Positions 49,508 to 60,243 of a DNA stretch of 64,000 nt are shown here, piece by piece; the first letter of the stretch is position 1, and each line of letters opens with the position of its first letter. The notes under the pieces are model-generated. The model was not told the origin of the DNA. It searched no databases and saw nothing but the letters and a program-made list of their open reading frames with translations. The translations under genes were made by a program, and so were the position numbers. Source of the DNA: a virus. Location of the stretch: IMG/VR virus record IMGVR_UViG_3300023082_000009, positions 1 to 64,000 of that record; one strand, 5' to 3'.

Positions 49508-49569
49508 CACTTCGCGAGTTCACCAACTTGACCCGGCATCCCGCCACCTACACACGAGAGTTACCCACC

Positions 49570-51063
49570 ATGGCAAACACCAAAGCTAAATCCGCTCCGG
49601 TTGAGGAAGCGGCTGCCGACATCGAAGTCGGTTCCAATGTCACCTTCCTCGGCTACGATGCCGACACCCCCGAAGCCGAACGCATCCTCGAAGCTGGCGA
49701 GCGTTACGAAGTAATCGAACTGCCCGGCACCACCGAGATCGACGGCGAAGTTGTCGAAACCGGTTACGTTCTGCGCCTGCCGAACCCTGACTTCAACAAG
49801 AAGAAAAAGGTTCACGCCGAAACCAACCCTGAATTCCTGGAAACCGAAGTCTTCGCCGAAGAGATCGAACTCTACGTTGAAGGCGACGATGCGGGTGCCG
49901 AAGGTGGCGAAGCTGCCGACGCGGGCGCTGATGCCCCAGGCGATGATGACCCTCTGACCTACGAAGAGCTGGCCGGTTACGACAAAGCCCAGCTGCTCGA
50001 ATTCGCAGAAGTCAACGAAGTCAAGCTGACCGCAGCTGACAAGAAAACCGACAAGGCGCTCCTGGCCAAGCTGGCTGCCGTCTACGAGCTGAGCCCTGCC
50101 GAGCCTGCCCCTACCAAGGCACCGGCCAAACCAGCAGCCAAAACTGCCGCAGCCAAGCCTGCCGCCGAAGCGCCTGCTGCCAAGCCTGAAACCGCCGCAG
50201 CCAAGAAAAAGCGTGAAGCTGCCGAAGCCGCGCAGAAGACCGCAGCCGCTGCCAAGAACAAAGGCGTGAACAAGTCGCCCGAAGGCGAAGTCGATCCTGA
50301 CGAAGTGCCGGACCTGGACAACGAAGACGATGCCGTTCTGGCGTTGATCGACGGTGACGTGGATCTGGTCGAAGTAGCCCAGGAACTGGAATCGGCGGTG
50401 GCCGTGTCCGAGTACCAACTCGGCGGCGTGCTGTACCACATCAAAAAAGAAAAAGTGCATCTGGCCGTCGACAAGAAGGGCAAGCTGCTCAACCCTGAAT
50501 ACGGCGAAACGGGCGGCTTCAAGCTGTTCCTCCAGGAGAACTTCAACCTGGACTACCGCAAGGCCACCTACCTGATCGACATCTACATCAACTTCACCCA
50601 GGCCGGTATCGAAAACCCGTCCGAAGTTGTTGGCCGTATCGGCTGGACCAAGGCAAGCAAGATCGCCAAGCCGCTGGGCCTGCCTGACGCTGACGTAGAA
50701 GGCCTGATCCAGGCTGCCGAGAACAACACCGTTCAAGACCTGTCTACCATCATCAAAGATGAATTCACGGTCGGCGGCGGTGAGGGCGCCAGCAAAGGCT
50801 CCGAAGGTACCAAGGTCAATCGCCTGACCCTGCGCTTCCGCTTCGTTGAAGAAGAAGCCAACGTGGTCGAGGACATCCTCAAGGAAGCCGCTGAGAAACT
50901 CGGCGTCAAAGAAGATGAAGCCTTGTTCCAGATCCTGACCGAGTATCACGCACAAGCCCTGACCGGCGACGCTGATGCCCAGGACGTGGAAGACACTGCC
51001 AAGGCAGCGGCCAACGCCAAGCCAGCTACACGCGGTAAGCCTCGTGGCGCAGCTCGTGCCTAA
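49570..51063 (+). CDS. Acidic protein with AKP-rich linker, putative DNA-binding/organising protein
   Basis: Own promoter and terminator; strongly biased codons; GF...YRKA...IGWTKA C-terminal domain. Confidence 0.7.
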   Translation: MANTKAKSAPVEEAAADIEVGSNVTFLGYDADTPEAERILEAGERYEVIELPGTTEIDGEVVETGYVLRLPNPDFNKKKKVHAETNPEFLETEVFAEEIELYVEGDDAGAEGGEAADAGADAPGDDDPLTYEELAGYDKAQLLEFAEVNEVKLTAADKKTDKALLAKLAAVYELSPAEPAPTKAPAKPAAKTAAAKPAAEAPAAKPETAAAKKKREAAEAAQKTAAAAKNKGVNKSPEGEVDPDEVPDLDNEDDAVLALIDGDVDLVEVAQELESAVAVSEYQLGGVLYHIKKEKVHLAVDKKGKLLNPEYGETGGFKLFLQENFNLDYRKATYLIDIYINFTQAGIENPSEVVGRIGWTKASKIAKPLGLPDADVEGLIQAAENNTVQDLSTIIKDEFTVGGGEGASKGSEGTKVNRLTLRFRFVEEEANVVEDILKEAAEKLGVKEDEALFQILTEYHAQALTGDADAQDVEDTAKAAANAKPATRGKPRGAARA

Positions 51064-51131: not shown

Positions 51132-51893
51132 ATGCCAACTCCAATTCGCCCAGGTCGTAAGTCGGTGAACGTGACCCGACCAGAGAAGGGCAGTACCCCG
51201 GCACGCCCGTCGCGCCCTGCGCCACGGCCAAAGCCAACCGACATGTCCAAGGTCAAACTGCGCCTTGAGTACGTGGACATCAATGACATCCAGCCCTACG
51301 AATGGAACGCACGCGACAACGCCAAGGCTGTGACTGCCGTGGCCAACTCGATCAGAGCGTTCGGCTTTGTCGTGCCCGTAGTGATCGACGCCAACGGCGT
51401 GCTGGGCGCTGGCCACACTCGTGTCGAAGCAGCCAAGACCCTGGGAATGCTGGAGGTTCCTGCGGTGCGGGCGGAGCACTTGACCAAGGAACAGATGGAC
51501 GCCTTCCGTATCGCCGATAACAAGGTGGCGGAGATGGCAACCTGGAATACCTCGATGCTGGCGGATGAGATGGACAAGCTGACCGGCCTGTTCGACTTCA
51601 CCGACTTCGGTTTCGGCCAGGGCGAGATCGACTGCCTTGCGTCCCTGGTAGGCGACGACTGCCTGTCTACTGCCAACCTGGGCGCCCTCACCGGTACCGC
51701 AGCAGGCGAAGAGACTCCAGGCCGCAGCGTTCGCCGTGCGCCGCTCCAGGCCCGCATCGTGATCGGTGAGCTGACCTTCTTTGTCCCCGCCGAGCAGTAC
51801 CGTAACTGGGTGCAGGGTCTGCGCGATCTGCACGACTTCAAAGACGAAGACATTGCGGCTGATCTGAAACGCCGCCTGGGGTTCCACGAATGA
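51132..51893 (+). CDS. ParB/Srx N-terminal domain protein
   Basis: PYEWNAR, SIRAFGFVVPVVID, AGHTR, RIADNK. Confidence 0.88.
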   Translation: MPTPIRPGRKSVNVTRPEKGSTPARPSRPAPRPKPTDMSKVKLRLEYVDINDIQPYEWNARDNAKAVTAVANSIRAFGFVVPVVIDANGVLGAGHTRVEAAKTLGMLEVPAVRAEHLTKEQMDAFRIADNKVAEMATWNTSMLADEMDKLTGLFDFTDFGFGQGEIDCLASLVGDDCLSTANLGALTGTAAGEETPGRSVRRAPLQARIVIGELTFFVPAEQYRNWVQGLRDLHDFKDEDIAADLKRRLGFHE

Positions 51894-52486
51894 AATACCT
51901 CCCTTGGATTGTTTGCTCCATCATCGCCCTGGCCTACCCCTTCGCCGGGTACCTGCCAGCCCTCGTACCTGGGACGGACTGGGGCCTCGTAGGCGTCCTG
52001 GCTGCACCGCTCCGGCATGCGACCCTTCTACACCTCGCGGTGAATCTGTTACCCTTGGCCTACCTCCTCAGCCTGATGCGCAACGACCCGCCTGCCCGTG
52101 TGATCATGGGCCTGCTGACCATCGTTGTAGTGGGAGGTATGTGGGTGTGGTTCTGGGGTCGACTCGGTATCCACGAAGGGGCAAGCGGCCTCACCCTCGG
52201 CGTGCTGGCAATGCTGGCGATGCGCACTGACTACCGATCCGTACTATCCGTTGCAGCCCTGGTGGGCACCGGCATCGCCCTTGAGTATGTGAACATACCC
52301 GAGGCGTCCTGGGAGACCCACCTGGGTGGCTTCGTGGCTGGAGCCTACTACGGGATCATCACACTGAACTGGAAGAGCAAGCGGGAGATGGACCATGACG
52401 ACGAATCGAGTAGTGCGCAGGCTACGCCATGCCCGGCCAAGTGCCGAAGTGACAGCCGACCACATTACCCTGGTCCCGGTCGATAA
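51890..52486 (+). CDS. Rhomboid-family intramembrane serine protease
   Basis: H-x4-HL-x2-N, GASG and HLGG catalytic motifs; multiple TM segments. Confidence 0.8.
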   Translation: MKYLPWIVCSIIALAYPFAGYLPALVPGTDWGLVGVLAAPLRHATLLHLAVNLLPLAYLLSLMRNDPPARVIMGLLTIVVVGGMWVWFWGRLGIHEGASGLTLGVLAMLAMRTDYRSVLSVAALVGTGIALEYVNIPEASWETHLGGFVAGAYYGIITLNWKSKREMDHDDESSSAQATPCPAKCRSDSRPHYPGPGR

Positions 52487-53951
52487 GCTGACCCCCGACA
52501 ATAAGAACCCCCGCAAGGCGGACCAAGCCCGGTCCGCTCTGCTGCTCCTCTCGCTCAAGAAGTTGAGCTTCCTCATGCCGCTGTTCCGTCAAAGGTCCAG
52601 CGGCTTGTTGCTGTCTGGCCACCAGCGCCTCACCCAGTCGAAGATCCTGGGCCTGGATGCGGTGCCGGTGGTAGACGTGGATGTCGAGGACAGCGAGGTG
52701 ATGAACATCAACCTCCTGTTCAACCGACTGACCAACGACTTCAACGCGTTCGACACGGGAGCCCAGGTCCAGGAGCGCCTGGACATGAAGCAGGTGCTTG
52801 CGCTGCTGGAGGCCCTACCGGACGCCGAGGGTCACTACGCCCTGGGCTGCACCGTGGAACCGATCCGGCAGTTCGCTCGGGCGGTGGGTGATCAGTACGA
52901 CAAGAAGGCCGCAGTCACAGCCGGTGCCTTTACCCGTATGAATATCCGCATCCCTCTCGTCGTCAGCGAGTCCGGCAAGGTGGTCAATGGCGTCAACCGG
53001 ATGTTCGCCGCGCTCGACCGTGGTATCGAAGAGTGGCCGGTAGTCCGGGTGCCCGACGACATCGCCGAGGTTGCAGCCGTGGTGCTGAACTACCTGTCCA
53101 TGGACTTCTCCGTCGACGACGATTTCAAGAACCTGCTGCGCTCCTCTGCGTTCCGCCGCGTGTCGAACAACCGGGGCACCGTAGGCAAGACCTACCGCTT
53201 CTGGGCCAACGGCTGCCGCTCGCTCCTGGATCGCGACAGCTACTCGCCGGAGTATTGGTCGAACTTCCGCCAGCTGCACGGCAACTCGATCCTGGACTTC
53301 GGGGCGGGCCTCGGGAAGGTGGCGCCCTACCTCCTGACCAAGGGCTTCGACGCTCACGACTTCGAGCCGTACCGCGTAGACCCAGACATGAATGCCGCCG
53401 AGCCCTCGCGCACCTACAGCAGGGAGCAGGCCAAGCGATTCCTCAAGGCCATCGAGAACCCCGAGCAGCGCTTCGACAGCATCTTCATGTCTGCCGTGAT
53501 GAACTCGATCCCGTTCCCGGAAGACCGGCTCATGGTGCTGGCGATTGTCCATGCGCTGTGTGCCCGTGAAACCGTGGTCTACGGAACCTGCCGCGACATG
53601 TCCGACTTTGACTACGAGTACGGCGGCGTGCGCAACGGCAACTACTTCGTCTGGGATACCGAGCCGGGCGTTCGCCTGGGCGACGTGTCGAGCTGCCCCA
53701 AGCTCCAGAAGTTCATGACCCAGGAAGAGGCTCGCGGGTACTTCGAGCGCTTCTGGACCACTATCGAGTTCTGGAAGGGTGGCAACGTGTTCTACTTCAA
53801 GCTCTCCGATCCGAAGGGCGTGAACATCAAGGCCCTGGGCCAGTCGCTAGACTTCGAGTTCAACCTGCCGTTTCGGGACGGCAAGGGCTTGGATCTGGTC
53901 AAGGAAGCCAAGGCTGCATTCAGCAAGCGTCTGCGGAGGCAAGTTCCATGA
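52395..53951 (+). CDS. Tandem ParB-like domains fused to a class I SAM-dependent methyltransferase fold
   Basis: NPRK...LLSGHQR; second PLVV...VNGVNR; ILDFGAG...DFEPY...FMSAVMNSIP. Confidence 0.8.
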   Translation: MTTNRVVRRLRHARPSAEVTADHITLVPVDKLTPDNKNPRKADQARSALLLLSLKKLSFLMPLFRQRSSGLLLSGHQRLTQSKILGLDAVPVVDVDVEDSEVMNINLLFNRLTNDFNAFDTGAQVQERLDMKQVLALLEALPDAEGHYALGCTVEPIRQFARAVGDQYDKKAAVTAGAFTRMNIRIPLVVSESGKVVNGVNRMFAALDRGIEEWPVVRVPDDIAEVAAVVLNYLSMDFSVDDDFKNLLRSSAFRRVSNNRGTVGKTYRFWANGCRSLLDRDSYSPEYWSNFRQLHGNSILDFGAGLGKVAPYLLTKGFDAHDFEPYRVDPDMNAAEPSRTYSREQAKRFLKAIENPEQRFDSIFMSAVMNSIPFPEDRLMVLAIVHALCARETVVYGTCRDMSDFDYEYGGVRNGNYFVWDTEPGVRLGDVSSCPKLQKFMTQEEARGYFERFWTTIEFWKGGNVFYFKLSDPKGVNIKALGQSLDFEFNLPFRDGKGLDLVKEAKAAFSKRLRRQVP

Positions 53952-54220
53952 AACACATCACCGATGGGTATCAGCCAGTGAGTGCAGGGCGCGTGGGCGC
54001 TGCCCCTCCAAAGGAGCGCTTCGACCCACCTCCTACTACCGAGGAACGGCGCGTCACCAAGACCCAGTTACAGGCCGAGCTGCGTAACGAGATCCTCGAA
54101 GAGCTGGCTGTGCTGCGGCGCATCATCAAGGGCCGAACTCTGGGCGCCGATGTATGCCTGGACAAGCACGAGGCAGAGTCCCTGGCCGACCGTCTACAGA
54201 GTTGGGCCGGTCGCGTCTAA
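53948..54220 (+). CDS. Hypothetical protein
   Basis: GGAGG RBS; ATGA coupling. Confidence 0.6.
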   Translation: MKHITDGYQPVSAGRVGAAPPKERFDPPPTTEERRVTKTQLQAELRNEILEELAVLRRIIKGRTLGADVCLDKHEAESLADRLQSWAGRV

Positions 54221-54224
54221 TCGA

Positions 54225-54240
54225 ATGCAATCAATTGCAC
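54225..54240. repeat. Dispersed palindrome copy (abuts RBS of CmoA-like gene)
   Basis: ATGCAATCAATTGCAC. Confidence 0.9.
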
Positions 54241-54250
54241 GGAGTACACC

Positions 54251-54961
54251 ATGAACAGTCCCGCACACTTCCCGGCCAACCCTTCCCGCTTCGTCTTCGA
54301 CGCGTCGGTGGCAGCCATCTTCGATGACATGGCCGACCGCTCGATCCCACTCTTCCGGGAGGCGCACCGCAACAACGTCAAGCTGGCGGAGCCCTGGCTG
54401 GCGAGCGATCCCCAGGTGCTGGACGTGGGCGCGTCCCGTGGTGCGTTCCTGCTGGAGCTGGATCGCCTATACGGCATCGACAACTTTGACGTGCGCGCCA
54501 CCGACATCAGCCCGGAGATGGTGGCCTACATGCGGGAGGACTTCCCCTCGGTGCAGGTCGACCAGCTGGACATCACCACCAGCGCGTTCCTCAACTGCTC
54601 CCACACGTACGACGTGATCAACTTCACCTACGTACTCCAGTTCATCCCGAAGGAGCTGCAACGCATTGTGCTGGCCAAGGTGTGCGCCATGGTCAAGCCG
54701 GGCGGTGTGCTCTTTATCGGCCAGAAGAACAAGGACGACAGCCCCGCAGGCCAGATGCTCCACAAGCAGTACATCAAATGGCGCATGGACAATGGCTACA
54801 CCCAGGAAGAGATCGACGCCAAGACGAAGGCACTTGCTGGTAGCATGTGGCCCACTGATGAGGCTATGCTCATCGGAGATCTCAAAGGCGCCGGGATGGT
54901 CGAGGTGGTACGCACCTGCTCCTGGGGTCCATTCAGCAACCTGATGTGCATCAAGCGATAA
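54251..54961 (+). CDS. CmoA-like protein (carboxy-SAM synthase family)
   Basis: FVFD-x2-VA-x2-FDDM-x2-RSIP, LDVGAS-x-G, DIS-x2-M, VLQF, NGYT-x2-EI-x2-K, all following the CmoA pattern. Confidence 0.8.
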   Translation: MNSPAHFPANPSRFVFDASVAAIFDDMADRSIPLFREAHRNNVKLAEPWLASDPQVLDVGASRGAFLLELDRLYGIDNFDVRATDISPEMVAYMREDFPSVQVDQLDITTSAFLNCSHTYDVINFTYVLQFIPKELQRIVLAKVCAMVKPGGVLFIGQKNKDDSPAGQMLHKQYIKWRMDNGYTQEEIDAKTKALAGSMWPTDEAMLIGDLKGAGMVEVVRTCSWGPFSNLMCIKR

Positions 54962-54971
54962 GGAGACGGAC

Positions 54972-55760
54972 ATGCCCACGAATAACGAACGCCCTGGCGA
55001 ACGCCGCGTCATCATGCGCCGGAGTCGTGGGCAGATGCCTTTCAGCAGTGCAGGCCGGGTGGACGGTACCCCTCGGGAAGCCCCGGTGATCGACGACGAT
55101 ATTGACGACGCCATCGACCCTGACCAGATCGACGACCACGTACGCCAGCAGACCCGACGCCCTGCCCCAGGCCCGAGCCGTGGCGACGCGCCAGAGCGCA
55201 ACCCTGCCCAGATGCTTATGGACGTGGATGAGTCCGGCAGCGCCGCCTACAGCAAGGAATACCGCATGGTGCTGCTGCACAAGATGCTGGCGCGGAAGAT
55301 GCCCCTGCACGAGATCGCCCGGCACCTGCGCGTATCCATCTCCACCATCGAGAAGGACCGGGTGCGGTTGAAGGCCTGGATGCGCGAGCAGGCCAAGGAG
55401 ATGAACATCGACGAGATGATCGGCAGCCAAGTCGCTCTCTACGATGAGCTGACCGCCATGTCGTTGCGCATCGCCTCGAAGACCTCCGGCGAGGGTGCCG
55501 TGCCCGTGGCCATGCAGCTGGCCGCCATGCGTACCACCCTGGCAGCCAACGCTGACAAGACCCGGTTCCTCGGCGCCGCTGGTGTACTCGATGTGCTGCG
55601 CTTCCGTAAGGGCGATACCGGTGAAGCACAATCTGACATCCAGATCGTCATGGAGCGGACTGCCCGCATGCTCGCTGCCCTGGCAGAGGACGGCGGCGGC
55701 ATGGAGAACTTCGGCGACTTCTCCATCAACGATGTGGAACCTGAAAGCGAGGAACTGTGA
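54972..55760 (+). CDS. Terminase small subunit (putative, HTH)
   Basis: EIARHLRVSISTIEKD HTH; coupled to the large subunit. Confidence 0.65.
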   Translation: MPTNNERPGERRVIMRRSRGQMPFSSAGRVDGTPREAPVIDDDIDDAIDPDQIDDHVRQQTRRPAPGPSRGDAPERNPAQMLMDVDESGSAAYSKEYRMVLLHKMLARKMPLHEIARHLRVSISTIEKDRVRLKAWMREQAKEMNIDEMIGSQVALYDELTAMSLRIASKTSGEGAVPVAMQLAAMRTTLAANADKTRFLGAAGVLDVLRFRKGDTGEAQSDIQIVMERTARMLAALAEDGGGMENFGDFSINDVEPESEEL

Positions 55761-57667
55761 TGGCCGTTCAACGTAGAAGCGCCATGCGCAAGCAGCTGGT
55801 TATCCAGGAGGTCGAGCTGATCGCCGACGGCTTGGCCAACAAGCAGTTCTCCGAGATGTACCGGCACGCAGTCCTCTGCGCCATGAACGGCGACACCCGG
55901 CTGTTCGACTTCATGTCGGTCCTGGACCGCGTGCCCGTGAGCATCGAAGACTTCATCGACAGCCCTGAGTTCCTGGGCAGCACTGACCTTGAGATGTGGC
56001 CAGAGGTTCGCCGGGCGGTCATCGAAGAGAACAAGGACTGGTGGAAGGGCCTAGAAGGCGGAGCACGGGATACCTGCTGCCTCATGGGGTGCACCCGTAG
56101 CGGCAAGTCGACCCAGGCAATCATCGGTACCCTGTACGACTTCTACATCCTCACCTGCATGCAGAACCCGCAGAAGTGGTACGGCCTGCCCTCGGCTACC
56201 TCCATCGTGTTCCCGATCATTGGCGCGAAGCCACACGTAACGAAGAAGGTTGTGTATGCCCCGATGCGGAAGTGGATCGAGCGCATGCCCTACTTCCAGG
56301 CCTGGGCACAGCCCGACAAGAACATCGACAGCGAGATGCTGTTCACCGAGAAGAACTTGCGGATCACGCCCGTCGGCGGTAGCGAGGATGCGATCCTGGG
56401 TGAGGCGACCATCGGTGGCATCATCGACGAGATCAACTTCATGAACGTGGTGCAGAAGTCGAAGAAGGCCGAGGTGTCCACCGGGCGGTCCGGCGTCTAC
56501 GATCAGGCAGCGCAGATCTTCGATACGTTCAGCCGCCGTCGCCGTGGTACGTTCGCCAAACGCTTCCCGCAGATCGGCAAGATCTTCGCGGTGTCGTCCA
56601 CTCGGTACCGGGGCGACTTCACCGACAAGCTCAAGGCCGACGTGATCAAGCACGACATGAAGAACGTCTACATCTTCGACAAGAAGCAGTACGAGGTTCA
56701 GCCTGCATCCAACTACTGCGGCCAGACCTTCCGCCTTCTGATCGGTAACGATGTGCAGCACGAGACCCGCGTGCTCCGGGACGACGAGGAAGTGATCGAA
56801 GGCGCCTGGGTGGAGAACGTGCCTATCGAATGCCTCCAGGACTTCCAGCGTAAGCCGTACGACGCGCTGCGGGACATCCTGGGCCTGTCGTCCAACGTGA
56901 TCAGCCCGTTCATCAAATCGCGCCACAAGGTCTACGAGTGCGTGGAGGCTGGCCGGGAGGTTGGGCTGGAGTCCTTCCTCATCCGCGACCACGTTATCCT
57001 GGGCGAGCACGGGATGCCGCAGGTCAAGCATGCCCACTATTGCAAGAACCCATCGCGCCCTCGCTATGTTCACATCGACTTGTCGCAAACGGGTGACCGG
57101 TGTGGGATCGCGATGATCCGATTCGATGGCATGATGCACCTACAGCGGAGTGGTGACTTGACCGAGCTGCTGCCCACCGGGGCGGTAGAGATGGCTTGCT
57201 CCATTCAGCCGGATGCAAACAACGAGATCGACATCGCCGAGGTACGGGCCTTCGTCAAGAACCTGAGCCGGTTGTATGGCTACCCCATCAAGGGCGTGTC
57301 CTATGACGGCTTCGATAGTCGCGAGTCTATCCAGGCGTGGCGCAAGGATCGGATGCCTACCAAGATCATCTCGATGGACCGCACGAGCGCACCCTACAAG
57401 CAGTTCCGGGACGCGCTGTACGACCGTCGGATTGGTCTGCTCGATGACGCGGACGTGACCAGCGAGATCCTTGAACTGGAGTACGACGAGTCGAAGGACA
57501 AGGTAGACCACACCATCGTCGGCAAGAAGGACGTGGCGGATGCGATCTGCGGTGCGTACACCAACATGCTGGAGCGCCGGAGCACCTGGGAAGGCGTGGA
57601 TGAATCCCTGGCCGAGTCTGGCCGATACGATGGCGAGCGGTTCGGGGACGAACCACGCCCACACTAG
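55757..57667 (+). CDS. Terminase large subunit
   Basis: GCTRSGKS Walker A, IIDEINF Walker B, HIDL...D, YDGF, KVDH...KDVADA nuclease motifs. Confidence 0.9.
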   Translation: MMAVQRRSAMRKQLVIQEVELIADGLANKQFSEMYRHAVLCAMNGDTRLFDFMSVLDRVPVSIEDFIDSPEFLGSTDLEMWPEVRRAVIEENKDWWKGLEGGARDTCCLMGCTRSGKSTQAIIGTLYDFYILTCMQNPQKWYGLPSATSIVFPIIGAKPHVTKKVVYAPMRKWIERMPYFQAWAQPDKNIDSEMLFTEKNLRITPVGGSEDAILGEATIGGIIDEINFMNVVQKSKKAEVSTGRSGVYDQAAQIFDTFSRRRRGTFAKRFPQIGKIFAVSSTRYRGDFTDKLKADVIKHDMKNVYIFDKKQYEVQPASNYCGQTFRLLIGNDVQHETRVLRDDEEVIEGAWVENVPIECLQDFQRKPYDALRDILGLSSNVISPFIKSRHKVYECVEAGREVGLESFLIRDHVILGEHGMPQVKHAHYCKNPSRPRYVHIDLSQTGDRCGIAMIRFDGMMHLQRSGDLTELLPTGAVEMACSIQPDANNEIDIAEVRAFVKNLSRLYGYPIKGVSYDGFDSRESIQAWRKDRMPTKIISMDRTSAPYKQFRDALYDRRIGLLDDADVTSEILELEYDESKDKVDHTIVGKKDVADAICGAYTNMLERRSTWEGVDESLAESGRYDGERFGDEPRPH

Positions 57668-57677
57668 GAGCAGGACC

Positions 57678-57992
57678 ATGATGACTTTCTTTGCAGTAGC
57701 CGGGATGGTGTGGCTCACGCTGATGGCGATACGCGTGCCCGCCCTCTACCGTGAGTCCAAGATCTTCGTAATGTCGTTCGTCAAGGGCGGCGGGTACACG
57801 AAGCTCCAGGCCCGCTGGGTGACTTTCCGTTGGGTGATCCTGCCCAGCCTCGGGGCGGCGCCGTCGCTTGTGTTCCTTGAATGGAGCCTGTTCTACACCG
57901 CACCATCTGCCCCAGAGATCCACGAAGCAGCCAAAGCCATCGACAAGTTCCTCAAGGAACGTCAGGCCAACGCAATCAACGAAGGGAAGTAA
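57678..57992 (+). CDS. Small membrane protein
   Basis: AGGAG RBS; two hydrophobic segments. Confidence 0.6.
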   Translation: MMTFFAVAGMVWLTLMAIRVPALYRESKIFVMSFVKGGGYTKLQARWVTFRWVILPSLGAAPSLVFLEWSLFYTAPSAPEIHEAAKAIDKFLKERQANAINEGK

Positions 57993-57994
57993 CC

Positions 57995-58843
57995 ATGCAA
58001 CAGTACCGCGAATTGATCAGCGACATCCTCCTGCGCGGCGAGGAGCGCAAATGGCGCAACGGCCACACCGGCATCAGTATCTTCGATGCCCGGATGGAGT
58101 TCGACTTGCGTGAAGGCTTCCCGCTCGAAGGGCTCAAGAAGGTGCCGTTCAAGACCGGGGTGGTAGGTGAGCTGATCGGCTTCATTCGCGGGTACACCAA
58201 CGCTGCGGACTTCCGTGCCCTGGGCTGCAACGTCTGGAACCAGAACGCCAACGAAGAGCCGAGCTGGCTGAACAACCCGGCACGTAAAGGGCACGACGAC
58301 CTGGGCCGCATCTACGGTGCGCAATGGCGGGACATCCGCGTCCAGGACGGCGGTAGCTACGCGGTGGTCGACCAGCTCTGGCAACTCCTGGCTGGCCTGC
58401 GCAGCGACCCGCACGGGCGGCGTCACGTAGTGTCCGCCTGGAACCCGGCTGAGCTGCACCTCATGGCCCTGCCTCCTTGCCACATGTTCTTCCAGTGCTA
58501 CGTGAGCAACGACGGGCACCTGGACCTCAAGATGTACCAGCGCAGTGCGGACGCCTTCCTGGGCATCCCGTTCAACATCGCCAGCTACGCGACGCTGATG
58601 CACATCCTGGCCCACTTCTGCAACCTCGTGCCGCGTCGTCTGATCATGGACCTGGGCGATGCCCACCTGTACACGAACCAGATTGATCTGGCCCACGAGA
58701 TGCTCAAGCGTTCGTGCCCGGAACTGCCCGACCTGGAGTTGAACACCGACGGGTGGGAAAGCCTGATGCACATCAAGCCCGAAGACTTCGCACTCAACGG
58801 GTACCGTCCACACGCTGCAATGAACTGCGAGATGGCCGTATGA
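57995..58843 (+). CDS. thyA: Thymidylate synthase
   Basis: LGRIYGAQWR, MALPPCH, YQRSADAFLGIPFNIASY, DAHLY. Confidence 0.95.
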   Translation: MQQYRELISDILLRGEERKWRNGHTGISIFDARMEFDLREGFPLEGLKKVPFKTGVVGELIGFIRGYTNAADFRALGCNVWNQNANEEPSWLNNPARKGHDDLGRIYGAQWRDIRVQDGGSYAVVDQLWQLLAGLRSDPHGRRHVVSAWNPAELHLMALPPCHMFFQCYVSNDGHLDLKMYQRSADAFLGIPFNIASYATLMHILAHFCNLVPRRLIMDLGDAHLYTNQIDLAHEMLKRSCPELPDLELNTDGWESLMHIKPEDFALNGYRPHAAMNCEMAV

Positions 58844-60243
58844 GAATCGTACGTACCCGACCGGCAGTCCTGGCCCAGGCTGTCCGTGACACCACCGCCG
58901 ACCAGCGCGGCAGCTCCGACCTCGTGGCCCGCGTGATCGAAGAGATCAAGGCCGAGTCCGGGCGCACTGCCAAGAAGGAGATGCTCAAGGCACTACGCGA
59001 CAGCAGCGACATCGCGCTCAAGGTGATGCTAGCCGTCTTCGACGTGAACCGTACCTACGGCATCAAGAAGGTACCGAGTGCCCGCGTGAAGGGTAACCCA
59101 CACTCCGGCAGCCGCGAGTTCAGCGACAACACCTGGGGCATCCTGGATGACTTGGCCAGCCGTAAGCTGACCGGCAATCGTGCCCAGGATGTCCTGGCCG
59201 TGGAGCTGGGCTTCCTGACGCAGCCATCGCGTGACCTGTTCACCGCCATCCTCCAGCAGAACCTGCGGGCGGGGTTCAGCGGCGACGTGGTAAACGAGGT
59301 CTGGGGCCCGGTCCTGCGCATCGTCAAGATCCAGCTGGCCAACACCTTCTTCATGAAGCAGAAGGCTGGCGAGAAGGGTCCGCGTAAGGTGAACCCGAAG
59401 GCCCGCTTCCCTGCCTACGACGACATCAAGTACGACGGCGTGCGCGGCTTCCGCCTGAGCGACGAGGACACCGGGTTCTTCTCGCGGGCCGGTCTCCCCC
59501 TGGAATGCCCGCCTGCCTTGCATACCCTGATCGGCGAGTTCCTGGAGGATGCCCGTGCGTTCTACGAGTGCGGTGCCGAGGAGGCGTTGTTGCTCGATTG
59601 CGAGATCGTGCCGCTTGCCGGTGGCTTCGCCGACATCATGAGTCAGGTGCGTGCCTCGAAGCGTGGCGCGAGCGACGGAACCACCGGTATTCGCATCATC
59701 GACATCATCACCAAGCAGGAGTACCTGGAGGGTAAGTCCTACGATAACCAGCGTGCCCGCCGTGAAGACCTGGAGCTGATGATCCAGCAGCCTTGGTTCA
59801 AGAAGTACGAGGGCTACATCAAGCTGACCGAAGGCCGCGAAGTGAAGAACGCCGAGGAGGCCCTGGCCTTCTACGCGGAGGTCGTGGCCAACGGCGGCGA
59901 AGGCACGATGCACAAGCACTACGACGATTACTGGGAAGCCAAGCGCACCGACGGCTGGTTGAAGCTCAAGCCTGCCGAGGAGATCGAAGGCAAGATCGTC
60001 GGGTACAAGGACGGTGCCAAGCACAGCAAGTGGGAAGGCTGGCTCGGGGCGGTCCTGGTCAAGCTACCCAACGGGGTGGTGGTATCCGTCGACGGTATGA
60101 CCGACAAGGTGCGCGAGTACATCCACCTGCACCGCGAAGAACTCCTGGGCGAGACAGTCGAACTGCTCTACCACGAGATGACCCCAGACGGCAGCCTGCG
60201 TCATCCACGGTTCAAGCCCGGCTTTGTACGGGACGATAAATAG
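58840..60243 (+). CDS. ATP-dependent DNA ligase
   Basis: KYDGVR, FSR, LDCEI, EGTMHK, WLKLK, GSLRHPRF. Confidence 0.92.
   Translation: MRIVRTRPAVLAQAVRDTTADQRGSSDLVARVIEEIKAESGRTAKKEMLKALRDSSDIALKVMLAVFDVNRTYGIKKVPSARVKGNPHSGSREFSDNTWGILDDLASRKLTGNRAQDVLAVELGFLTQPSRDLFTAILQQNLRAGFSGDVVNEVWGPVLRIVKIQLANTFFMKQKAGEKGPRKVNPKARFPAYDDIKYDGVRGFRLSDEDTGFFSRAGLPLECPPALHTLIGEFLEDARAFYECGAEEALLLDCEIVPLAGGFADIMSQVRASKRGASDGTTGIRIIDIITKQEYLEGKSYDNQRARREDLELMIQQPWFKKYEGYIKLTEGREVKNAEEALAFYAEVVANGGEGTMHKHYDDYWEAKRTDGWLKLKPAEEIEGKIVGYKDGAKHSKWEGWLGAVLVKLPNGVVVSVDGMTDKVREYIHLHREELLGETVELLYHEMTPDGSLRHPRFKPGFVRDDK

Follow-up and report, generated by a model that had tools for sequence, protein, structure and literature searches.

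The gene cluster considered here lies at positions 51132-57667 of a 64,000-nucleotide stretch of viral DNA (the window), which comprises bases 1-64000 of the 94,879-bp IMG/VR virus record IMGVR_UViG_3300023082_000009, rated complete by CheckV. The window has a GC content of approximately 60% with nearly all genes on the + strand, and Samunavirus (the Pseudomonas aeruginosa siphophages SM1, PaMx31, UF_RH6 and FBPa45) are its distant relatives at the DNA level, with approximately 69% identity over 40% of the region. An earlier reading of this DNA from its sequence alone had described seven tightly packed open reading frames (ORFs) at this locus, and had suggested that the phage makes a derivative of S-adenosylmethionine (SAM) and uses a ParB-guided transferase to place a non-methyl group, for example carboxymethyl, on DNA. 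All seven ORFs are present there on the + strand and encode, in order, a ParB-N protein, a rhomboid protease, a fusion of two ParB-like domains with a SAM-binding fold that we term PMT, a 90-aa protein, a CmoA-family protein, and the probable small and large terminase subunits, TerS and TerL. No terminator-like site was found on the + strand inside 51.1-57.67 kb, and there is one at 57853, 3' of TerL. The ORFs do not, however, form a single unit throughout. The conserved unit consists of the ParB, PMT, CmoA-like and terminase genes, whereas the rhomboid gene and the 90-aa ORF are lineage-specific passengers, the former specific to this genome and the latter in a variable slot.

PMT (52395..53951, + strand; 518 aa; phrog_5475, 6.4e-136, full-length type) is the candidate transferase. 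Its first ParB-like domain (residues 24-115; 52464..52739, + strand) matches Pfam ParB_N at 3.3e-4 over residues 24-110, which is under the cut-off, and carries invariant NPR, SGHQR and NRxTNDF motifs, with NPR corresponding to box I and GxxR to box II of the ParB fold. This domain also matches ParB/Spo0J in the PDB (8.4e-5), and Foldseek pairs it with CDP/CTP-bound ParB and Noc at a probability of 1.0. The second ParB-like domain (residues ~150-235; 52842..53099, + strand) was recognised by hhalign against the first: residues 20-132 and 140-245 align over 67 columns with a probability of 90.6% and an E-value of 1.3e-6, and on the strength of this alignment it is a real, degenerate duplicate of domain 1. 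It has NGVxR and LNYLSMDF motifs, and in the structural model the two domains share the same order of strands and helices. The rest of the protein (residues 243-518; 53121..53948, + strand) is a class I Rossmann SAM-fold domain, matched by Methyltransf_23 (PF13489, 1.5e-8, residues 294-395). Two ParB-like domains and a SAM fold are thus united in one polypeptide, as the sequence-only reading had proposed.

The SAM domain has a motif I of the form DFGxG, a motif II with FEP, and NSxPFxxDR after strand 4. Residues R249, D301, G303, G305, E324, P325, N370, S371, P373, F374, D377, R378 and K436 are invariant family-wide, and the basic residues R249, R378 and K436 are candidates for holding a carboxylate. 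AlphaFold gave predicted local distance difference test (pLDDT) values of 80.5 for full PMT and 91.9 for the SAM domain alone. In the full model the N-terminus resembles nucleotide-bound ParB and Noc and the C-terminus small-molecule methyltransferases. The nearest Foldseek neighbours of the SAM domain are YunM, CcbJ, GNMT, GSMT, ToxA, TylM1 and CypM (E ~1e-6, template modelling score 0.4-0.46), which are N-methyltransferases of small molecules and peptides, and a wide search with VIA-align returned class I enzymes for heterocycles, tRNA, the mRNA cap and metabolites in a flat ranking (Z 13.5 to 10). PMT has homologues in at least 358 clusters; these proteins are 500-520 aa long, most are encoded on contigs of ~95-119 kb, and the best 120 share 56-88% identity. 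A search of 1.84 billion representatives with the SAM domain alone gave only 235 clusters, and in almost every one the domain is C-terminal in a protein of ~500 aa. By these searches PMT belongs to a compact, highly conserved family of its own, whose range takes in phages of ~95-119 kb, including Samunavirus and Aeromonas phage HJ05, both with cultured representatives, together with prophages in many bacterial phyla.

The view that PMT stands apart from the familiar SAM-dependent transferases of nucleic acids was borne out. The protein contains MSAVMNSIP, while PC, DPPY and NPPY motifs, and more generally a (D/N/S)PP(Y/F/W) motif, were not found in it, and the 94.9-kb genome has no match to PF00145, PF01555, PF02086, PF08003 or PF00733. 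Lacking these motifs, and in a genome with no match to the first three families, PMT is neither a C5-cytosine methyltransferase nor an amino-methyltransferase of the DPPY type. Assignment as a CmoB-like transferase (of the Lys91, Tyr200, Arg315 type) was also rejected, since the hhalign alignment with E. coli CmoB is limited to 20 columns around motif I and PF08003 has no match in the genome. As the genome carries no transferase of the C5, N6/N4, Dam or CmoB type, PMT is left as the sole candidate to use what the CmoA-like enzyme makes.

The CmoA-family protein (54251..54961, + strand; 236 aa) earns its label through homology over its full length. It matches TIGR00740 (1.1e-28) across residues 12-234, the N-terminal FD..VA..F..M..RS.P lid motif included, as well as phrog_4752 (1.1e-46) and the PDB entries 4GEK/1IM8 (1.4e-17), and is a true member of the CmoA family and a probable carboxy-SAM synthase. 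For comparison, the sequence of SpCmoA was extracted from Synechococcus phage S-B43 and aligned. TIGR00740 gives 100.5 bits for the window protein, 115.6 for SpCmoA, 91.7 for the protein of SM1 and 120.8 for that of HJ05, all of them below the equivalog cut-off of 193.3. Because SpCmoA, a verified phage enzyme, fails too, this cut-off can be regarded as fitted to cellular CmoA, and by these scores the window protein is as CmoA-like as SpCmoA, the sole phage enzyme with known activity.

The SAM-contact residues of E. coli CmoA (taken from Byrne et al., PMC3663124) Asp62, Gly64, Ser66, Asp89, Asp117 and Phe137 are kept in the window protein as D58, G60, S62, D85, D107 and F131, and K191, the counterpart of Lys198, is invariant in 56 of 56 module-linked homologues. 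Thr192 aligns with Arg199, which in CmoA salt-bridges the cofactor carboxylate (Byrne et al., 2013, PMC3663124). The residue at position 199 differs by clade, being Thr/Ser, Ala/Val or Glu, with Arg only in the type represented by loci L084, L086 and L128; the Tyr39 position holds Phe in the window protein and Tyr in most relatives (45 of 56), and neither Asn90 nor Asn132 is conserved. It might be supposed that loss of Arg199 marks a protein that is no carboxy-SAM synthase. We rejected this, as the verified SpCmoA has Lys-Glu-Lys at E. coli Lys198-Arg199-Ser, hence Glu at position 199, and lacks Asn132 too. Since SpCmoA has a kcat tenfold greater than that of E. coli CmoA (Yang et al., PMC12783734), Arg199 is not required for activity.

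The sequence-only reading had made its proposal depend on co-occurrence of these genes across phages, and they do co-occur. We fetched 80 viral loci, onto which the window proteins were mapped, and 36 loci from bacterial genomes or metagenome-assembled genomes (Alphaproteobacteria, Verrucomicrobiota, Bilophila, Roseibium, Laceyella, Anaerolineae and others). ParB lies directly upstream of PMT in 65/66 viral loci with room for it, a CmoA-like gene follows PMT in 56/57 viral and 27/28 bacterial-genome loci, and TerL is downstream of PMT in 38 of 40 viral loci. It should be noted that many of these loci are closely related and the counts are not independent, although they do extend over five or more clades whose PMT is only 30-37% identical to the window PMT, and that, for the most divergent members of the family, gene neighbourhoods come from related-locus retrieval only. 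The TerL that follows the module may be phrog_9-like, or belong to phrog_15 (L058, L071, L085) or phrog_2 (L084), and the order ParB, PMT, CmoA-like, TerS, TerL is kept despite these differing terminase families. Adjacency to the terminase genes, which had been noted for this genome, thus holds across at least three TerL families.

The stand-alone ParB-N protein (51132..51893, + strand; 253 aa) has the ParB/Srx fold and matches phrog_620 at 2.4e-46 and Pfam ParB_N at 3.8e-4 (20.9 bits, under the cut-off). Domain-family searches detected no helix-turn-helix (HTH) domain in this protein or in PMT. By analogy with the ParB partners of other phage enzymes discussed below, it is a candidate activator or DNA-tether of the transferase.

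The two terminase assignments of the sequence-only reading are supported in part. The probable TerS (54972..55760, + strand; 262 aa) has an HTH at residues 103-127, with weak HTH_38 (7.7e-4) and sigma-70 region 4-like matches. It is kept directly 5' of the TerL candidate in relatives, and in distant clades the gene at the same position is a recognisable TerS (phrog_57, phrog_4102). The probable TerL (55757..57667, + strand; 636 aa) is divergent, with a Walker A motif GCTRSGKST, a Walker B motif IIDE and C-terminal nuclease-like motifs, as read from the translation. It has a partial phrog_9 match (4.5e-7, residues 432-565), and its Atlas neighbours (0.99) carry MJ0330_N, one cluster among them being named TerL. 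Position and the weak HTH matches thus speak for TerS, and the Walker motifs, phrog_9 and MJ0330_N for TerL, which has no Pfam terminase match. Single-sequence and profile searches found no PDB match for TerL, and its hhalign comparison with two clear TerLs was not significant, aligning only Walker A and the last Asp motif. No other TerL candidate was found in the 94.9-kb genome; SM1, too, has no terminase annotated at another place, and its portal gene is far away.

An insert of ~0.9-1.1 kb interrupts the TerL gene of many relatives at residues 105-125, the Walker A site (L016, L023, L030, L031, L033, L035, L036, L038, L039, L046, L051 and L052). In L037 the insert is at approximately residue 449 instead, and the window TerL is uninterrupted. 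The inserts are probably inteins, because Intein_splicing and LAGLIDADG domains occur in Atlas neighbours of the window TerL. Apparent inteins in the PMT gene, where the match spans ~2.1 kb at many loci, were dismissed as an artefact in which the PMT ParB domain cross-matches the upstream ParB gene.

In three distant lineages an Amidoligase_2 gene adjoins the module. It lies directly after PMT in L083/L091 (4.4e-15) and in L128 (1.6e-15), in the latter with a GGACT (gamma-glutamyl cyclotransferase-like) gene, while in L133 (2.6e-35) it is found with a GATase_6/7 (class II glutamine amidotransferase) gene directly before ParB. The CmoA partner at these ligase loci keeps Arg199 in L128 and has a SpCmoA-like Lys-Glu in L083. 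Since an ATP-dependent amide ligase needs a substrate that bears a carboxyl or amine group, as with CmoY acting on 5-carboxymethylcytosine, the Amidoligase_2 neighbours support a carboxyl handle. Amidoligase, GATase and GGACT genes are reportedly of a kind found in DNA hypermodification clusters in the surveys of Iyer and Aravind.

The remaining two ORFs of the cluster lie outside this conserved core. The rhomboid intramembrane protease (51890..52486, + strand; PF01694, 8.1e-10, over the cut-off) has both the catalytic Ser of GASG and the His of HLGG, and its ORF shares ATGA with the ParB stop codon and 92 nt with the start of the PMT gene. It is missing from 80/80 related loci, and 50,697 phage records gave no match. 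The intact gene is an insertion confined to this genome, outside the conserved module, and looks like a recent acquisition. The 90-aa ORF (53948..54220, + strand) occupies the slot between the PMT and CmoA-like genes and has no Pfam, PHROG or NCBIfam match; among the related loci its homologues are confined to the closest relatives. In other relatives the slot holds genes for an Acb2/Tad1-like sponge domain, dihydrofolate reductase (DHFR), ThyX or a gp49/gene 66-like protein (L014:8677-9159, L017:6880-7431, L038:2800-3579, L042:8950-9597, L023:8482-8991), and it is a hot spot for accessory genes. In distant clades (L055-L086, L109-L140; for example L085:9180-9602) a conserved 140-aa ORF (phrog_32036, no Pfam match) is always found between PMT and the CmoA-like gene and is a possible fourth component of the module there. 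At L084:8693-9862 a gene for a T4 Rnl1-type RNA ligase (PF09511, 1.2e-25) follows PMT, and the CmoA partner at this locus keeps Arg199.

The window also contains a 14-bp palindrome, TGCAATCAATTGCA, in 15 copies with at most one mismatch (1395-60498) against 0.01 expected, and the 94.9-kb genome has 22 exact copies. The window sites lie on both strands and inside genes; one copy (54226..54239, + strand) precedes the start codon of the CmoA-like gene by 11 nt. The unaltered 14-mer is also present in 22 loci of related phages, SM1 (L001/L003/L004) has 21 copies of TGCAAACGCTTGCA instead, with the same arms TGCAA-N4-TTGCA, and many relatives have one palindrome copy approximately 200 bp inside the CmoA-like gene. 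A dimeric DNA-binding protein conserved in this phage group probably binds the palindrome. The idea that the ParB machine recognises it was not borne out, as distant clades with the module lack TGCAA-N4-TTGCA. It is also unrelated to the nick-associated motif WACTRTGAC of other Pseudomonas phages (PMC11780129).

On the 5' side of the cluster a 511-aa protein (49528-51063; phrog_17202, 3.8e-30, no Pfam match) is encoded directly upstream of ParB in most close relatives, and may be part of the same unit as the ParB module. On the 3' side of the terminase genes there is a thymidylate synthase (57881-58843; PF00303, 2.5e-84) with an N-terminal extension of ~39 aa, followed by an ATP-dependent DNA ligase (58714-60243). 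The listed ligase ORF overlaps that of thymidylate synthase by 130 nt, and for this reason its true start is probably later than 58714.

The published system nearest to the module is CmoA-CmoX(-CmoY) of Synechococcus phage S-B43, in which phage carboxy-SAM serves to form 5-carboxymethylcytosine in DNA (Yang et al., Nat Commun 2025, PMC12783734). CmoA-CmoX clusters have ParB-domain proteins nearby, and the authors state that they saw no CmoA-linked candidates of the N6 or N4 type (PMC12783734). The window module is similar in that a phage CmoA-family enzyme stands beside a SAM-fold transferase with ParB-domain proteins nearby, and in having an optional amide ligase third step, which here is seen only in distant relatives and involves another family, Amidoligase_2. 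Unlike CmoX, PMT is no homologue of C5-cytosine methyltransferases, and as the genome has no PF00145 match there is no equivalent of SPPC/Arg350; PMT is unrelated to the sole natural DNA carboxymethyltransferase described and is fused to two ParB-like domains. CmoY is an asparagine-synthetase-like ligase, whereas the window genome has no PF00733 match and no such ligase, and the module is placed directly before the terminase genes here. Compared with E. coli CmoA/CmoB, which form cmo5U in tRNA, the window protein shows CmoA homology over its whole length and keeps the SAM-binding residues and Lys198, but Arg199 is replaced by Thr, the score is sub-equivalog, the partner is not CmoB-like and the phage has no tRNA gene.

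Two further precedents concern the ParB domains. A phage thymine dioxygenase requires a stand-alone ParB without a DNA-binding domain to act on double-stranded DNA (O'Toole et al., PNAS 2026, PMC13229309). Here too a stand-alone phage ParB without an obvious DNA-binding domain lies beside a (candidate) DNA-modifying enzyme, although the enzyme in that case is an iron/2-oxoglutarate (Fe/2OG) dioxygenase, and PMT also carries two fused ParB-like domains. Fusions of the ParB-CTPase fold, whose members can bind ATP, GTP or CTP, with Methyltransf_23 are enriched in phages and prophages and were reported with no function given (Hocher et al., PNAS 2025, PMC12704722). The domain combination is that of PMT, but the survey does not include the duplicated ParB domain, the link to CmoA or the link to terminase. 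To call the cluster a candidate new DNA-modification system was therefore an overstatement, since the route from CmoA to a DNA carboxymethyltransferase was published in 2025 (PMC12783734) and the fusion in PMC12704722. It is the concept that has been published already; the PMT family, its double ParB fusion and the fixed place before the terminase genes are uncharacterised.

We propose that the module carries out a late-expressed, post-replicative modification of DNA. According to this model, the CmoA-family enzyme would convert SAM and prephenate to carboxy-SAM, and the Rossmann domain of PMT would move the carboxymethyl group to a base of the phage DNA while its two ParB-like domains grip the double-stranded DNA. 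The separate ParB-N protein would activate or tether PMT, in the manner of the ParB homologues of phage thymine dioxygenases, and the resulting mark would protect the DNA against nucleases of the host. Where an amidoligase adjoins the module, as in a few distant lineages, that enzyme, with or without a glutamine amidotransferase, would turn the mark into an amide. The homologies, the make-up of the domains, the near-obligate co-occurrence, the place before the terminase genes and the lack of another transferase or a tRNA gene in the genome are direct observations, while we infer the carboxy-SAM product, its use by PMT, the DNA target and the protective benefit alike, and the case for DNA as the target is made from the three ParB-fold domains together with the ParB precedents (PMC12783734, PMC13229309). 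For the full chain, in which carboxy-SAM is made, used by PMT and deposited on DNA, we estimate a probability of roughly 0.45, a little short of even odds, from the sequence data assembled here. Of the carboxymethyl-DNA idea as first put forward, the co-occurrence of the genes, the membership in the CmoA family, a transferase that is not of the CmoB, C5 or DPPY kind, and the adjacency to terminase have all stood; the concept is not categorically new, and the rhomboid and the 90-aa ORF have dropped out as passengers.

Several observations weigh against this model. DNA methyltransferases are absent from the best Foldseek and VIA-align matches of PMT, its SAM domain resembling small-molecule, peptide and RNA methyltransferases instead, and flat lists of this kind fix no substrate. 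No similarity between PMT and CmoB beyond motif I was detected by hhalign. The CmoA-like protein scores under the NCBIfam equivalog threshold (100.5 < 193.3), and its identity to E. coli CmoA is only ~27-30%. The genes are separable, as the slot between PMT and the CmoA-like gene takes unrelated inserts, and no CmoA-like gene was detectable at viral locus L047 or bacterial locus L117. Finally, the place before terminase may reflect only the start of a late operon and late expression.

A rival explanation is that PMT is an ordinary SAM methyltransferase acting on phage DNA, and that the CmoA-like protein works separately, either draining host SAM to counter SAM-dependent defences or feeding the host CmoB. 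PMT does have a standard SAM motif I/II and a Methyltransf_23 match, and ParB-Methyltransf_23 fusions are among the predicted phage DNA methyltransferases (PMC12704722). SAM depletion by CmoA has been raised as a possibility (PMC12783734), and unrelated genes can part PMT from the CmoA-like gene. However, the pairing of the two genes in 56/57 and 27/28 loci across clades with as little as 30-35% identity is hard to explain unless they share a pathway, and the amidoligase neighbours need a carboxyl or amine handle, neither of which a methyl group supplies. We therefore consider this explanation unlikely.

A target other than DNA, such as host tRNA or rRNA, a protein (terminase, portal or ParB) or a nucleotide bound by the ParB/Srx-fold domains, must also be weighed. 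The nearest folds to PMT, among them GNMT, GSMT, CcbJ, CypM, METTL6, Trm9 and the cap N7 enzyme, act on small molecules, peptide N-termini or RNA, and its PHROG annotation reads 'tRNA methyltransferase'. Carboxy-SAM also serves tRNA, through CmoB, and peptide, through TglF (PMC10491745), ParB-fold domains can bind ATP, GTP or CTP (PMC12704722), and the module genes adjoin terminase genes. Yet no tRNA gene was found in the 94.9-kb genome, which excludes a phage tRNA as an available target, and PMT has no CmoB-like similarity. The amidoligase, GATase and GGACT neighbours are, as noted above, reportedly of a kind found in DNA hypermodification clusters. The three ParB-fold domains point the same way, given that ParB partners of DNA-modifying enzymes are known (PMC13229309, PMC12783734), and a non-DNA target likewise seems to us a minority prospect. 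Least probable of the alternatives is that the CmoA-like protein makes a SAM derivative other than carboxy-SAM and that PMT transfers that group: position 199 is clade-variable, Tyr39 is changed to Phe, and Asn90 and Asn132 are not conserved, but verified SpCmoA has Glu199 and no Asn132, so these positions do not define the product, and Lys198 and the SAM-contact residues are invariant.

Carboxymethylation of DNA by PMT can be taken further, in a form that we regard as quite doubtful as a whole. PMT would be a DNA N-carboxymethyltransferase giving, for example, N6-carboxymethyl-adenine or N4-carboxymethyl-cytosine, its ParB domains would serve as a clamp loading it on DNA at packaging, and in the lineages with Amidoligase_2 and a glutamine amidotransferase the product would be amidated to carbamoylmethyl. 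This agrees with the fold neighbours of PMT, which are mainly N-methyltransferases. To our knowledge, bases of this N-carboxymethylated class have not yet been reported from natural DNA. Phage Mu Mom makes N6-carbamoylmethyl-adenine (PMC7261163), and a carbamoylmethyl base in the amidoligase/GATase lineages would be a speculative chemical likeness to it, although Mom is a GNAT-fold protein and unrelated. Were this form correct, a carbamoylmethyl base, and with it the chemistry of Mom, would be reached by an unrelated route.

If the proposed chain from carboxy-SAM to DNA is true, carboxy-SAM-dependent DNA modification would not be confined to C5-cytosine enzymes, and PMT would represent a second, unrelated transferase family that uses the same rare cofactor. 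A new natural DNA base would be added, and ParB-fold domains would acquire a defined role in base modification. PMT would, moreover, be available as a new enzyme with which to attach a reactive carboxyl handle to DNA.

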